Positions 25,780 through 54,292 of a DNA stretch of 64,000 nucleotides are shown here, one piece after another; within the stretch, counting starts at the first letter, position 1; each line of letters starts with the position of its first letter. Made by a program: the position numbers and the translations under genes. The notes beneath the pieces were generated by a model. It did no database searches and was not told the origin of the DNA. It saw nothing but the letters and a program-made list of their open reading frames with translations. Origin of the DNA: Escherichia coli (GTDB taxonomy: Bacteria > Pseudomonadota > Gammaproteobacteria > Enterobacterales > Enterobacteriaceae); assembly GCF_003334815.1 (NCBI RefSeq), contig NZ_QOWO01000012.1; one strand, written 5' to 3'.

Positions 25780-25895
25780 CAAAGTGCGCTTTGTCCATGC
25801 CGGATGCGGCGCGAACGCCTTATCCGGCCTACAAAAGTTTGCAAATTCAATAAATTGCAGAATTCATGTAGGCCTGATAAGCGAAGCGCATCAGG
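25780..25895. repeat. REP/BIME element(s)
   Basis: tgccggatgcggcgcgaacgccttatccggcctac ... gtaggcctgataagcgaagcgcatcaggca. Confidence 0.85.
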
Positions 25896-30867: not shown

Positions 30868-30965
30868 TTCGCATTTGCAGGCAGGATAAGGCGTTTACGC
30901 CGCATCCGGCATTTGAGCAGGATGCCTGATGCGACGCTGATAGCGTCTTATCAGGCCTACACTCC
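30868..30965. repeat. REP/BIME element(s)
   Basis: ggcaggataaggcgtttacgccgcatccggca ... gcctgatgcgacgctgatagcgtcttatcaggcctac. Confidence 0.85.
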
Positions 30966-36731: not shown

Positions 36732-39744
<3,013 letters not shown>

Positions 39745-39748
39745 ACAC

Positions 39749-39990
39749 TGCCGGATGCGGCGCGAGCGCCTTATCCGGCCTACGGGTCGGCAACAGTTGT
39801 AGGCCTGATAAGACGCGACAGCGTCGCATCAGGCATTGATTGCCGGATGCGGCACAAGTGCCTTATCCGGCCTACAGGTCGGCAATAGTTGTAGGCCTGA
39901 TAAGACGCGACAGCGTCGCATCAGGCATTGATTGCCGGATGCGGCGCGAGCGCCTTATCCGGCCTACGGGTCGTGCATCCGACAACACCG
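39749..39990. repeat. BIME: tandem 92-bp units each carrying an inverted REP pair (2 full units plus a partial third)
   Basis: ccggatgcggcgcgagcgccttatccggcctacgggtcggcaacagttgtaggcctgataagacgcgacagcgtcgcatcaggcattgattg repeated from 39751 and from 39843. Confidence 0.9.
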
Positions 39991-40010
39991 AATTTACAGG
40001 AACACAGAAC

Positions 40011-40835
40011 ATGCAAAACATTACTCAGTCCTGGTTTGTCCAGGGAATGATCAAAGCCACCACCGACGCCTGGCTGAAAGGCTGGGATGAGCGCAACGGC
40101 GGCAACCTGACGCTACGCCTGGATGACGCCGATATCGCACCATATCACGACAATTTCCACCAACAACCGCGCTATATCCCGCTCAGCCAGCCCATGCCTT
40201 TACTGGCAAATACACCGTTTATTGTCACCGGCTCGGGCAAATTCTTCCGTAACGTCCAGCTTGATCCTGCGGCTAACTTAGGCATCGTAAAAGTCGACAG
40301 CGACGGCGCGGGCTACCACATTCTTTGGGGGTTAACCAACGAAGCCGTCCCCACTTCCGAACTTCCGGCTCACTTCCTTTCCCACTGCGAGCGCATTAAA
40401 GCCACCAACGGCAAAGATCGGGTGATCATGCACTGCCACGCCACCAACCTGATCGCCCTCACCTATGTACTTGAAAACGACACCGCGGTCTTCACTCGCC
40501 AACTGTGGGAAGGCAGCACCGAGTGTCTGGTGGTATTCCCGGATGGCGTTGGCATTTTGCCGTGGATGGTGCCCGGCACGGACGAAATCGGCCAGGCGAC
40601 CGCACAAGAGATGCAAAAACATTCGCTGGTGTTGTGGCCCTTCCACGGCGTCTTCGGCAGCGGACCGACGCTGGATGAAACCTTCGGTTTAATCGACACC
40701 GCAGAAAAATCAGCACAAGTATTAGTGAAGGTTTATTCGATGGGCGGCATGAAACAGACCATCAGCCGTGAAGAGTTGATAGCGCTCGGCAAGCGTTTCG
40801 GCGTTACGCCACTCGCCAGTGCGCTGGCGCTGTAA
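40011..40835 (+). CDS. rhaD: Rhamnulose-1-phosphate aldolase
   Basis: 274 aa from [37 protein letters not shown]; ORF track extends upstream through the REP cluster. Confidence 0.96.
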
Positions 40836-40844
40836 GGAGCAAAC

Positions 40845-41159
40845 ATGATCCGCAAAGCCTTTGTCATGCAGGTAAACCCCGACGCCCACGAAGAGTATCA
40901 GCGTCGGCATAATCCCATCTGGCCAGAACTGGAAGCAGTGCTGAAATCTCACGGTGCGCATAACTACGCCATCTATCTCGACAAAGCGCGTAATCTGCTG
41001 TTTGCCATGGTAGAGATTGAATCTGAAGAACGCTGGAATGCGGTTGCCAGCACTGATGTTTGCCAACGTTGGTGGAAATATATGACCGATGTTATGCCCG
41101 CTAACCCGGATAACAGCCCGGTGAGTAGCGAGCTGCAAGAAGTGTTTTACCTGCCGTAA
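40845..41159 (+). CDS. rhaM: L-rhamnose mutarotase
   Basis: 104 aa [46 protein letters not shown]. Confidence 0.95.
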
Positions 41160-48460: not shown

Positions 48461-51400
48461 ATGCAGGTCAGCAGAAGGCAGTTCTTTAAGATCTGCGCTG
48501 GCGGTATGGCAGGCACCACGGCAGCGGCACTGGGTTTTGCACCCAGCGTAGCACTCGCGGAAACCCGGCAGTATAAACTGCTGCGCACCCGCGAAACCCG
48601 TAATACCTGCACCTATTGTTCCGTAGGCTGTGGGCTGTTGATGTACAGCCTCGGTGACGGAGCAAAAAACGCCAAAGCATCTATCTTCCATATCGAAGGC
48701 GATCCGGATCACCCGGTCAACCGCGGTGCACTTTGTCCGAAAGGCGCTGGCCTGGTGGATTTCATCCACTCCGAAAGCCGTCTGAAGTTTCCGGAATACC
48801 GTGCGCCAGGTTCTGATAAATGGCAGCAAATCAGTTGGGAAGAGGCGTTTGATCGCATCGCCAAACTGATGAAAGAAGACCGCGATGCTAACTACATTGC
48901 GCAAAACGCCGAAGGCGTGACTGTTAACCGCTGGCTCTCCACCGGGATGCTGTGTGCTTCCGCGTCGAGTAACGAAACCGGCTATTTAACGCAAAAATTC
49001 TCCCGCGCGCTGGGTATGCTCGCGGTCGACAACCAGGCGCGTGTCTGACACGGACCAACGGTAGCAAGTCTTGCTCCAACATTTGGTCGCGGTGCGATGA
49101 CCAACCACTGGGTCGACATCAAGAACGCCAACCTCGTCGTGGTGATGGGCGGTAACGCCGCTGAAGCTCACCCGGTCGGGTTCCGCTGGGCGATGGAAGC
49201 CAAAATTCACAACGGCGCGAAGCTGATTGTGATCGATCCTCGCTTTACGCGTACGGCGGCGGTAGCTGACTACTATGCCCCTATTCGTTCCGGTACTGAC
49301 ATTGCTTTCCTGTCAGGCGTATTGCTGTACCTGCTGAACAATGAAAAATTCAACCGCGAATACACCGAAGCCTATACCAACGCCAGCCTGATCGTGCGTG
49401 AGGATTACGGCTTTGAAGATGGCCTGTTCACCGGCTACGACGCGGAAAAACGCAAGTACGATAAATCCTCCTGGACTTATGAACTGGACGAAAACGGCTT
49501 CGCCAAACGCGATACCACGCTGCAACATCCGCGCTGCGTGTGGAACTTGCTGAAACAGCACGTTTCCCGCTACACGCCAGATGTGGTTGAAAACATCTGT
49601 GGTACGCCAAAAGACGCGTTCCTGAAAGTCTGCGAATACATCGCAGAAACCAGTGCTCACGATAAAACTGCCTCGTTCCTGTATGCCCTCGGCTGGACGC
49701 AACACTCCGTTGGTGCGCAAAACATTCGTACGATGGCGATGATCCAGCTGCTGCTCGGCAATATGGGGATGGCAGGCGGCGGCGTTAACGCCCTGCGCGG
49801 TCACTCCAATATTCAGGGGCTGACGGACCTGGGGCTGCTGTCGCAGAGCCTGCCAGGTTACATGACGCTGCCAAGCGAGAAGCAGACCGATCTGCAAACC
49901 TACCTTACCGCCAACACGCCAAAACCGCTGCTGGAAGGCCAGGTAAACTACTGGGGCAACTACCCGAAATTCTTCGTCTCTATGATGAAGGCCTTCTTTG
50001 GTGATAAAGCGACGGCGGAAAATAGCTGGGGCTTTGACTGGTTGCCGAAGTGGGATAAAGGCTACGACGTCCTGCAATACTTCGAGATGATGAAAGAGGG
50101 CAAGGTCAATGGCTATATCTGCCAGGGCTTTAACCCTGTTGCCTCATTCCCGAACAAAAACAAAGTGATCGGTTGTCTGTCGAAACTGAAGTTCCTCGTC
50201 ACCATCGACCCACTGAACACTGAAACCTCTAACTTCTGGCAGAACCACGGTGAGCTGAACGAAGTTGACTCGTCGAAGATCCAGACCGAAGTGTTCCGTC
50301 TGCCATCGACCTGCTTCGCGGAAGAGAACGGTTCTATCGTTAACTCAGGTCGCTGGTTACAGTGGCACTGGAAAGGTGCGGACGCCCCGGGGATTGCGCT
50401 GACTGACGGCGAGATCCTCTCCGGTATCTTCCTGCGCTTGCGCAAGATGTATGCCGAACAGGGTGGCGCGAACCCGGACCAGGTGCTGAACATGACATGG
50501 AACTACGCCATTCCGCATGAGCCATCTTCAGAAGAAGTGGCGATGGAGAGCAACGGTAAGGCGCTGGCCGATATTACCGATCCGGCAACCGGTGCGGTTA
50601 TCGTCAAGAAAGGCCAACAACTTAGTTCGTTCGCCCAATTGCGCGATGACGGTACAACCTCCTGTGGCTGCTGGATTTTCGCCGGTAGCTGGACGCCGGA
50701 AGGCAACCAGATGGCACGCCGTGATAACGCCGATCCGTCTGGCCTCGGTAACACGCTGGGCTGGGCATGGGCATGGCCGCTTAACCGCCGCATTCTGTAT
50801 AACCGCGCCTCCGCAGATCCGCAGGGTAACCCGTGGGATCCGAAGCGTCAGTTGCTGAAATGGGACGGCACTAAGTGGACCGGCTGGGATATTCCGGACT
50901 ACAGCGCAGCGCCTCCGGGTAGCGGCGTCGGGCCGTTTATCATGCAGCAGGAAGGCATGGGGCGTCTGTTTGCCCTCGATAAGATGGCGGAAGGTCCGTT
51001 CCCGGAACACTACGAGCCGTTTGAAACGCCGCTGGGAACTAACCCGCTGCATCCAAACGTTATCTCGAACCCGGCTGCACGTATCTTTAAAGACGACGCC
51101 GAAGCATTGGGTAAAGCCGATAAGTTCCCGTATGTCGGAACCACCTATCGTCTGACCGAGCACTTCCACTACTGGACCAAACACGCGCTGTTGAACGCGA
51201 TTTTGCAGCCAGAGCAGTTTGTGGAAATCGGGGAGTCGCTGGCGAATAAACTTGGCATTGCCCAGGGCGATACCGTGAAAGTCTCCTCCAACCGTGGCTA
51301 TATCAAAGCCAAAGCGGTGGTGACCAAACGTATTCGCACGCTGAAAGCGAACGGCAAAGATATCGATACCATCGGTATTCCGATTCACTGGGGCTATGAA

Positions 51401-54149: not shown

Positions 54150-54292
54150 TGACAAGCGTAAGATTGCCTGATGCGCTGCGCTTATCAGGCCTACCAATAA
54201 ACTGCAATACATTGAATTTATACGACTTTGTAGGCCGGATAAGGCGTTCACGCCGCATCCGGCATGAACAACGCGCACGTTGTCAGCAATCT
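54150..54292. repeat. REP/BIME element(s)
   Basis: gcctgatgcgctgcgcttatcaggcctac ... gtaggccggataaggcgttcacgccgcatccggca. Confidence 0.85.

Follow-up and report, generated by a model that had tools for sequence, protein, structure and literature searches.

The spacer between rhaA and rhaD in the 64-kb stretch of Escherichia coli DNA analyzed here (the window) almost certainly contains a BIME-2, namely an allele, here with five REPs, of the locus that is listed as REP299a-i in K-12. Tandem Repeats Finder reported an array at 39749..39973 with a period of 92, 2.4 copies, 93% matches, no indels, and a score of 415; it was the only tandem array of the window at a score of ≥60. Between unit 1 (39749-39840) and unit 2 (39841-39932), 5 of the 92 positions are different (39762, 39764, 39767, 39784, and 39794), and a partial third copy of 41 nt (39933-39973) is the same as unit 1. 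A sequence-only reading of this DNA had described a tandemly repeated REP pair consisting of 92-bp direct repeats followed by a partial third unit, and this description held: each 92-bp unit contains two inverted REPs, and the REPs alternate in orientation along the array. The phase given in that reading (39751/39843) was 2 nt off that of Tandem Repeats Finder, which is immaterial, and the difference it pointed out between the units (gcgcgagcg versus gcacaagtg) accounts for three of the five differing positions. The extent it gave, 39749-39990, was right at its start; the end was placed too far downstream, 17 nt past the repeat and into a degenerate REP remnant. The features of the locus are listed in Table 1.

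Table 1. Features of the rhaBADM region and of the rhaA-rhaD spacer, in window coordinates
Feature	Position	Strand	Remarks
rhaB	37019-38488	+	Annotation of E. coli strain H2 (NZ_CP010163)
rhaA, L-rhamnose isomerase, upstream gene	38485..39744	+	NZ_CP010163 annotation, ORF list
rhaA stop codon TAA	39742-39744	+	
rhaA-rhaD intercistronic spacer	39745..40010	+	266 nt
92-bp unit			Y REP + 15-nt linker + Z2 REP + 5-nt linker TTGAT
REP 1, type Y	39749..39783	-	GTAG head on minus strand; mRNA 3' end ...CCUAC; inner stem GCGC/GCGC
REP 2, type Z2	39799..39835	+	GTAG head on plus strand
REP 3, type Y	39841..39875	-	Inner stem GCAC/GUGC
REP 4, type Z2	39891..39927	+	Identical to REP 2
REP 5, type Y	39933..39967	-	Identical to REP 1
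Natural IS621 target ATCAGGCCTAC, twice in array	39799-39809 and 39891-39901	-	Target string from Durrant 2024
Non-repeated spacer tail	39968..40010	+	43 nt
Degenerate REP remnant GCATCCGACAA	about 39975-39985		Based on inverted-repeat pairs in spacer tail
rhaD Shine-Dalgarno AGGAA	39998-40002	+	
rhaD, rhamnulose-1-phosphate aldolase, downstream gene	40011..40835	+	NZ_CP010163 annotation
rhaM, after rhaD	40845-41159	+	NZ_CP010163 annotation

Over 901 nt, the array region matches E. coli strain H2 (NZ_CP010163) at 100% identity. Because the annotation of this genome transfers at 100% identity, the array could be placed in the rhaA-rhaD spacer, confirming the earlier assignment to a position inside the rhaBAD(M) operon. 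The array is wholly extragenic, with the rhaA stop codon on one side and the rhaD start codon on the other. Between the stop codon and the first REP there are four nucleotides (ACAC), and the ATG of rhaD is preceded by AGGAA 8 nt 5' of it. A long ORF at 39840-40835 (TTG start, 331 aa), which crosses the array in the rhaD frame, was rejected as a mechanical extension of rhaD, whose annotated ATG lies at 40011.

For the REP assignment, the spacer was matched against three published E. coli REP consensus sequences (strings printed in Durrant 2024). REPs are imperfect palindromes of ~30-40 nt that are preceded by GTAG and form a stem-loop with a conserved internal mismatch (AA/GC bulge), and a BIME is a mosaic of Y and Z2 elements in inverse orientation, in which the REP pair is tandemly reiterated (PMC8266576). 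All five palindromes fit the REP consensus, with 3-4 mismatches in 35 positions for the Y copies (3 for REP 1) and 1 mismatch in 37 for the Z2 copies (including REP 2); the mismatches of the Y copies all lie in the loop-proximal part. Consensus fit and alternation of the two types served as the identity tests, and the order found was Y(-) Z2(+) Y(-) Z2(+) Y(-). In 5/5 copies, GTAG (CTAC when read on the opposite strand) adjoins the palindrome directly. In the predicted Z2 hairpin, a 2x2 internal loop is flanked by 7+5 pairs; in the predicted Y hairpin, a 1x1 mismatch is flanked by 8+4 pairs. The BIME-2 label follows the nomenclature of Gilson (1991) and Bachellier (1994), in which the named linkers are reportedly S between heads and l or r between tails.

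Thirteen copies of the REP head motif GTAGGCCKGATAAG were counted at five loci of the window versus 0.40 expected, and 0/100 shuffles reached 13. The REP family is thus real and abundant in the window. Across E. coli genomes, a query containing the array matched a median of 9 places per genome. The Tandem Repeats Finder score, the enrichment of the head motif, and the presence of the same sequence in a second, independent complete genome ruled out an origin of the array by chance or as an assembly artifact.

The array varies widely in length between strains. With 300 nt from each side of the spacer as the query, we screened 5,426 complete E. coli genomes and measured 59 rank-spread records, taking spacer length as the span minus 601 (the downstream flank began 1 nt inside rhaD). 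The sequence-only reading had expected the copy number to vary between strains, and the 59 sampled complete genomes indeed carry 1-9 REPs. A spacer of 450 nt with nine REPs was found in 12 genomes (near-variants: one of 448 and one of 460 nt), 358 nt with seven REPs in 2 genomes (one near-variant of 368 nt), 266 nt with five REPs in 8 (four of 276 nt), 174 nt with three REPs in 8 (two of 176 nt), and 82 nt with a single REP in 10 (one of 92 nt). In 9 genomes without near-variants, a 241-nt spacer contains one REP plus another element. Single-REP alleles thus make up ~19% and the 241-nt allele ~15% of the sampled genomes. The spacer measures 174 nt in BL21-type strains and 450 nt in K-12. Five lengths (450, 448, 358, 266, and 82 nt) occur among those 14 sampled genomes that match the window at 100% over the 600 nt of flanks. 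ST131 records have both 82 and 266 nt, although assembly collapse is possible in single cases.

One example per length class was inspected at the sequence level, and the layout was stop-ACAC-[Y-15-Z2-5]n-Y-tail, with n = 0 to 4. The head-to-head linkers of 15 nt and the tail-to-tail linkers of 5 nt (TTGAT) were constant in length across all alleles inspected. Where an allele has 5, 7, or 9 REPs, the inner stem is GCGC/GCGC in the terminal Y copies and GCAC/GTGC in the internal ones, as would be expected if internal units were gained and lost by unequal recombination or slippage. Such changes in the number of internal 92-bp units would explain why the array always begins and ends with a Y REP and why the number of REPs is always odd (1, 3, 5, 7, or 9). 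The stop-ACAC-Y junction is the same in 11/11 E. coli alleles inspected, including the single-REP, BoxC, and IS621 alleles, and the last Y REP may be kept because unequal recombination cannot remove the final copy.

Two further kinds of allele differ from this series. In the 241-nt allele, the first Y REP is kept and the Z2-Y units are replaced by an inverted pair, CCCTC(G/T)CCC...GGGAGAGGG-TTA/CCG-GGGTGAGGG. These blocks match the BoxC / PIT / "TMECO" intrastrand-triplex repeats tabulated for K-12 (Holder et al. 2015). In NZ_AP021933, IS621 is inserted in a Z2 REP of the array exactly between GTAG and GCC, and the AG (=CT) core flanks it on either side.

At the RNA level, the spacer is strongly structured. 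The mRNA strand of 39736-40016 was predicted to fold with -141.9 kcal/mol versus -100.4 +/- 5.1 kcal/mol for dinucleotide shuffles (z = -8.1; 0/200 shuffles as good). In the predicted MFE structure, the last ~26 nt of the fold, including the rhaD ribosome-binding site, are unpaired. Single REP hairpins have about -21 kcal/mol (-21.3 for REP 1; -21.9 for REP 2, z = -5.7), and the alternative Y:Z2 pairing yields -47 to -55 kcal/mol: the doublet of the first Y and the first Z2 copy folds as one long hairpin with -55.0 kcal/mol (z = -8.0), and so does the doublet of the first Z2 and the second Y copy with -46.7 kcal/mol (z = -7.3).

We also looked for covariation in the Y stem using 14 distinct variants from 11 Escherichia alleles. 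Pairing was found in 96.4% of the cells versus ≤42% with slid partners. One pair shows a double change (G:C to A:U, gcgc/gcac), the one that distinguishes the inner stem of REP 3 from that of REP 1, and 87/500 shuffles do as well. Covariation was therefore discarded as proof of a selected RNA structure.

No sigma-70-like promoter was detected on either strand of 39300-40400, and no intrinsic terminator (hairpin plus U tract) was detected in this segment, where no T run follows any REP. An internal rhaD promoter and an intrinsic terminator after rhaA were accordingly rejected, and the array is probably transcribed within the operon message. Any termination at the array would have to be factor-dependent. 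As it contains 77 C and 81 G in its 266 nt, the spacer lacks a C-rich, G-poor composition and is thus not an obvious Rho loading site.

The explanation we consider best, and probable, is that of a BIME-2 with copy-number dynamics and an effect on the evenness of operon expression, the functional part being argued by analogy. A REP or REP doublet would have been seeded at the site, presumably by a REP-associated tyrosine transposase, and the 92-bp Z2+Y unit would then have gained and lost copies as internal units underwent unequal recombination or replication slippage. The RAYT (tnpA-REP) gene of K-12 is located far from the rha region. Co-transcribed in the rhaBADM mRNA, the array would fold into very stable hairpins that would probably block 3'-to-5' exonucleases, so that the rhaB-rhaA segment would outlive the rhaD-rhaM segment. 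In addition, transcription would probably be partially lost before rhaD with the assistance of Rho. Since the first hairpin stem begins 6 nt 3' of the rhaA stop codon, terminating ribosomes would perhaps be hindered as well, lowering the RhaA output. The net outcome would be uneven expression within the rhaBADM operon, which the length of the allele might modify. By the same analogy, the chances that the array has a measurable effect on rha expression are roughly even.

The analogy is drawn from other REP-containing operons. The sequence-only reading had offered stabilization of the upstream message or attenuation of rhaD as possibilities, and both are in agreement with what has been published on other REPs. 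REPs block 3' exonucleases there, and REP325 in yjdMN lowers the downstream gene ~8-10-fold, in a partly Rho-dependent manner, and stabilizes the upstream message (bioRxiv 10.64898/2026.03.23.713779). Genome-wide, the upstream/downstream expression ratio is raised in tandem gene pairs separated by REPs, with large scatter; REP effects are context-dependent, and mRNA half-lives are not uniformly changed (bioRxiv 10.64898/2026.03.23.713779). A full-text literature search on rhaA, rhaD, and REP returned nothing relevant. Alleles with a single REP, alleles with other palindromes, and an IS621 allele all occur naturally, so the locus needs no specific array length.

These same natural alleles would also suit a near-neutral selfish passenger, that is, a REP/REPIN cluster tolerated in the only sizeable noncoding gap of the operon, with a copy number that is mutational noise. 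We regard this account as somewhat unlikely, yet it is the main rival and a serious one. It would be in line with E. coli spacers of 82 to 460 nt, with a different repeat family in about one-seventh of the sampled genomes (the 241-nt allele), with the IS621 copy within the array of NZ_AP021933, and with the lack of significant covariation. An extreme case is Escherichia sp. MOD1-EC7003, in which 21 complete REPs plus a half Z2 were found in about 1 kb 5' of rhaD. The contig begins with the end of an IS3-family element, which abuts the Z2 loop and cuts the array off; the array thus comprises at least 22 REPs.

The comparison between species bears on the same question. In a cross-genus scan with a RhaD query and one genome per species, 80 loci were found, and the rhaA-rhaD spacer could be delimited in 76. 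In these 76 Enterobacteriaceae species, the spacer ranges from 24 to 466 nt, and a few spacers are essentially bare (24-47 nt). By motif class, 34 spacers have GTAG-type REPs, 23 have BoxC-like palindromes, 1 has both, 4 have other REP-like motifs, and 14 have neither. The GTAG-type REPs in the 34 spacers are species-specific in sequence and varied in orientation. Unrelated repeats, or almost nothing, thus occupy the position from species to species, as a passenger would predict. By the motif test, the spacer was repeat-positive in 58/76 species versus 53/75 for the 2.5-kb flank 3' of rhaD, a crude control because this flank is ~10-20 times longer than the spacer and spans several spacers. As the flank was nearly as often positive, such repeats seem to fill most available gaps of these genomes; no site-specific enrichment was demonstrated, and the comparison does not establish the rhaA-rhaD spacer as a hot spot under selection across genera, which the seemingly convergent occupation of one site had at first suggested. 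However, with a fold of -142 kcal/mol, 266 nt inserted midway in an mRNA are unlikely to leave both decay and read-through unaffected. In addition, the comparable REP325 has roughly 10-fold effects, and the genome-wide bias of REP-containing tandem gene pairs toward upstream expression also speaks against a mere passenger.

A chiefly translational action, argued by analogy, is rather unlikely as the whole explanation. Here, the first Y REP, 4-6 nt past the rhaA stop codon, would stall ribosomes and lead to mRNA cleavage, trans-translation, and less RhaA, and the extra units would be irrelevant. According to the account of Liang 2015 given in PMC12306157, REPs lying <16 nt away from a stop codon down-regulate translation of the upstream gene. 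The first REP of the array lies within 15 nt of the rhaA stop codon, so the documented effect, which the sequence-only reading did not include, is applicable in addition to message stabilization and attenuation. The invariance of the stop-ACAC-Y junction agrees with such a role but is equally expected from simple inheritance, and rhaA is absent from the RepRanger supplements. Moreover, the translational model is compatible with the explanation by uneven operon expression rather than exclusive of it.

A stronger version of the favored explanation makes array length a heritable, fast-mutating rheostat, in which each change by a 92-bp unit would shift the ratio of RhaD(M) to RhaB/A via attenuation and differential decay. 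Judged by analogy, this is improbable. If true, flux via rhamnulose-1-phosphate and lactaldehyde would be tuned without promoter or coding changes, and the unrelated palindromes in most Enterobacteriaceae spacers would represent convergent selection for a structured barrier.

We consider it quite doubtful that the array acts mainly at the DNA level, as a binding site for DNA gyrase, Pol I, or RAYT with an influence on local supercoiling or replication. BIME-2 elements are reportedly sites of high-affinity DNA gyrase binding and cleavage (attributed to Espeli and Boccard, 1997). REPs have been reported as binding sites for gyrase, Pol I, and IHF (PMC1525189), and K-12 REP299 is among eight REP regions with raised coverage in the exonuclease-protected "mobilome" under SDS and copper stress, a signal that its authors read as protein protection (bioRxiv 10.1101/2024.07.17.603846). 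However, the mobilome signal has several possible causes according to the same authors, and a DNA-level role is not exclusive of RNA-level effects.

Finally, the array matches the Rfam family RF02564 (naRNA4) on the minus strand at 39802-39872 and 39894-39964, with 76.6 and 77.0 bits versus a gathering score of 59.5. Because the family was built from REP325 units, it recognizes any Z2-Y doublet; a third match above the gathering score is located at 30880-30957 of the window. The RF02564 match confirms the doublet type and is no demonstration of an sRNA gene. That the locus produces naRNA4-like nucleoid-associated small RNAs acting with HU in chromosome organization is extremely unlikely and would over-read the match, given that the strand above threshold is antisense to the operon and has no promoter-like site, that the mRNA strand scores 56.5 and 53.2 bits, under the gathering score, and that the nucleoid role is contested, REP325/naRNA4 being without measurable nucleoid compaction or REP-REP contacts (bioRxiv 10.64898/2026.03.23.713779). 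At sites of this kind, an Rfam naRNA4 match is best taken as a sign of a "Z2-Y REP doublet" and not as evidence of an sRNA gene. Other Rfam matches in the region (Termite-flg, nhaA-II, and several miRNA families) have E-values of 0.8-10, far under the gathering scores, and were attributed to chance.

The literature already covers this type of element, its locus (REP299), and the general functional ideas. The question of BIME length versus polarity has been raised for REP325, at one locus only (bioRxiv 10.64898/2026.03.23.713779). The natural allelic series described here (1, 3, 5, 7, and 9 REPs with identical flanks, plus the BoxC and IS-disrupted alleles) suits a test of how BIME length relates to intra-operon polarity, and the rha operon offers an inducible, well-understood setting for it. 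The spacer differences between strains are also relevant for rhaBAD-derived parts and for comparisons of rha expression between BL21-type, K-12, and ST131 strains.

Among the known systems, the BIME-1 / RIP-type pairs of the window itself (6434-6495, 25819-25881, and 54181-54243) share with the rha array the REP superfamily and the GTAG heads. They differ in being single head-to-head pairs with a ~34-nt linker that are not tandemly reiterated, whereas the head-to-head linkers of the rha array have 15 nt. The Rfam family ES036/CssrF matches the BIME-1 linkers at 2/3 sites (6440-6481 and 25834-25875) and has no match in the rha array. The malE-malF REP reportedly protects the upstream message from 3' exonucleases and gives unequal operon expression (attributed to Newbury et al. 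1987, Cell 48:297). This element is likewise intercistronic and located in a sugar-utilization operon, but it consists of two REPs in another operon and has no reiterated Y/Z2 array.

The closest relative is REP299 of K-12 MG1655. The MG1655 RefSeq feature table has no repeat_region entry for the rhaA-rhaD spacer, so the name was taken from a study that lists the K-12 array by its EcoCyc name, REP299a-i, within the rhaBAD operon (bioRxiv 10.1101/2024.07.17.603846). There, REP299 is the only one of the eight raised-coverage REP regions that lies inside an operon, and it is predicted by RAREFAN to be a RAYT-associated REPIN (bioRxiv 10.1101/2024.07.17.603846). REP299 and the window array have in common the locus, the flanks, the first and last Y REPs, the unit (Y, 15 nt, Z2, TTGAT), and the 43-nt tail with the rhaD ribosome-binding site. 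The K-12 spacer has nine REPs in 450 nt and the window spacer five in 266 nt, without two internal 92-bp units, and one internal Y copy of K-12 carries an extra substitution (TTATCAGGCC). Because the MG1655 spacer has nine REPs in the same layout, the window array is a shorter allele of the catalogued element.

Of the comparable elements, the one studied best is REP325, the BIME-2 of yjdM-yjdN and the source of naRNA4. Like the rha array, it consists of alternating Y and Z2 REPs inside an operon, between co-directional genes, and the likeness extends to the rha Z2-Y doublets, which score 77 bits on the model built from REP325. It differs in locus and flanking genes and in its length of 12 units versus 5 in the rha array. 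REP325 is the one such array with direct evidence for a role as a partly Rho-dependent attenuator and upstream stabilizer.

IS621, an element of the IS110 family that uses a bridge-RNA recombinase, was found within the REP array between rhaA and rhaD in a single genome, that of E. coli WP2-W18-ESBL-08 (NZ_AP021933; positions 1946-3500 of the extracted locus L091). The insertion point lies exactly at GTAG|GCC of a Z2 REP, and the AG/CT core flanks both ends of the element. The natural IS621 target, ATCAGGCCTAC, is matched exactly in both Z2 REPs of the window's array, and the REP loci elsewhere in the window contain four additional exact copies. In the same strain, a carbohydrate porin gene was observed between rhaM and frvA (L091, 4690-6084); it is missing at that position in K-12 and in the strain from which the window derives.

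When 5,426 complete E. coli genomes were searched with the 600 nt flanking the spacer, 63 gave no match. Another 23 contained no single place with 80% query coverage; these carry a disruption or a very long insert, and the genome with IS621 is one of them.

A different change was detected in 9 of the 59 sampled genomes, which share a 241-nt spacer allele, exemplified by E. coli O157:H16 (NZ_CP062876; extracted locus L005, 401-641). Here the first Y REP alone is retained, and the rest consists of an inverted pair, type A and type B, of the BoxC, PIT or 'TMECO' intrastrand-triplex motifs tabulated by Holder et al. (2015). This allele also lacks 17 nt that normally belong to the spacer tail (TGCATCCGACAACACCG), so it represents a replacement rather than an insertion alone.

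We also compared the spacer across 76 species of Enterobacteriaceae, in which its length ranged from 24 to 466 nt. It is filled by species-specific REP pairs in Citrobacter, Salmonella arizonae and diarizonae, Kluyvera, Leclercia and Superficieibacter, the last with a 466-nt array, and by BoxC-like palindromes in Pseudocitrobacter, Enterobacter, Lelliottia and Kosakonia. Repeat occupancy was similar in the downstream-flank control, and thus no site-specific enrichment of repeats in the spacer was demonstrated among the 76 species.

The remaining REP loci of the window are listed below, together with ordinary Rfam matches that are useful for placing it; the SECIS_3 element presumably lies inside the formate dehydrogenase-O gene fdoG. 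Since two of the three linkers in head-to-head REP pairs match ES036 (CssrF) above the gathering score, our data suggest that what this family represents is not an independent sRNA gene but the linker found in BIME-1/RIP-type elements. In the tail-to-tail doublet, one REP head is degenerate (GCAGGCAGGATAAG).

Positions of sequence features in the window
Feature	Position	Strand	Remark
L31 ribosomal-protein leader	7461-7513		Rfam
ClpQY (hslVU) promoter element	12125-12182		Rfam
SECIS_3 element	49043-49101		Rfam, 84 bits
Single head-to-head REP pair	6434-6495		~34-nt linker
ES036 (CssrF) match in linker	6440-6481	minus	Rfam, above gathering score
Single head-to-head REP pair	25819-25881		~34-nt linker
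ES036 (CssrF) match in linker	25834-25875	plus	Rfam, above gathering score
Single head-to-head REP pair	54181-54243		~34-nt linker
Tail-to-tail REP doublet	30877-30960		naRNA4 (RF02564) match on plus strand, 78.6 bits
IS621 target in Z2 REP	39799-39809		exact
IS621 target in Z2 REP	39891-39901		exact

A very long array was detected upstream of rhaD in Escherichia sp. MOD1-EC7003 (NZ_PTRE01000091; extracted locus L011, 1-1078). It comprises 21 full REPs and half a Z2, corresponding to at least 10.5 units in ~1 kb, a size far beyond the 1-12 units given for REP loci of K-12. The first 60 nt of this contig match one end of an IS3-family element with 96.7% identity, and matches to this sequence occur in 2,066 of the 5,426 E. 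coli genomes. The IS end adjoins the loop of a Z2 REP, an insertion behavior of the kind reported for IS1397.
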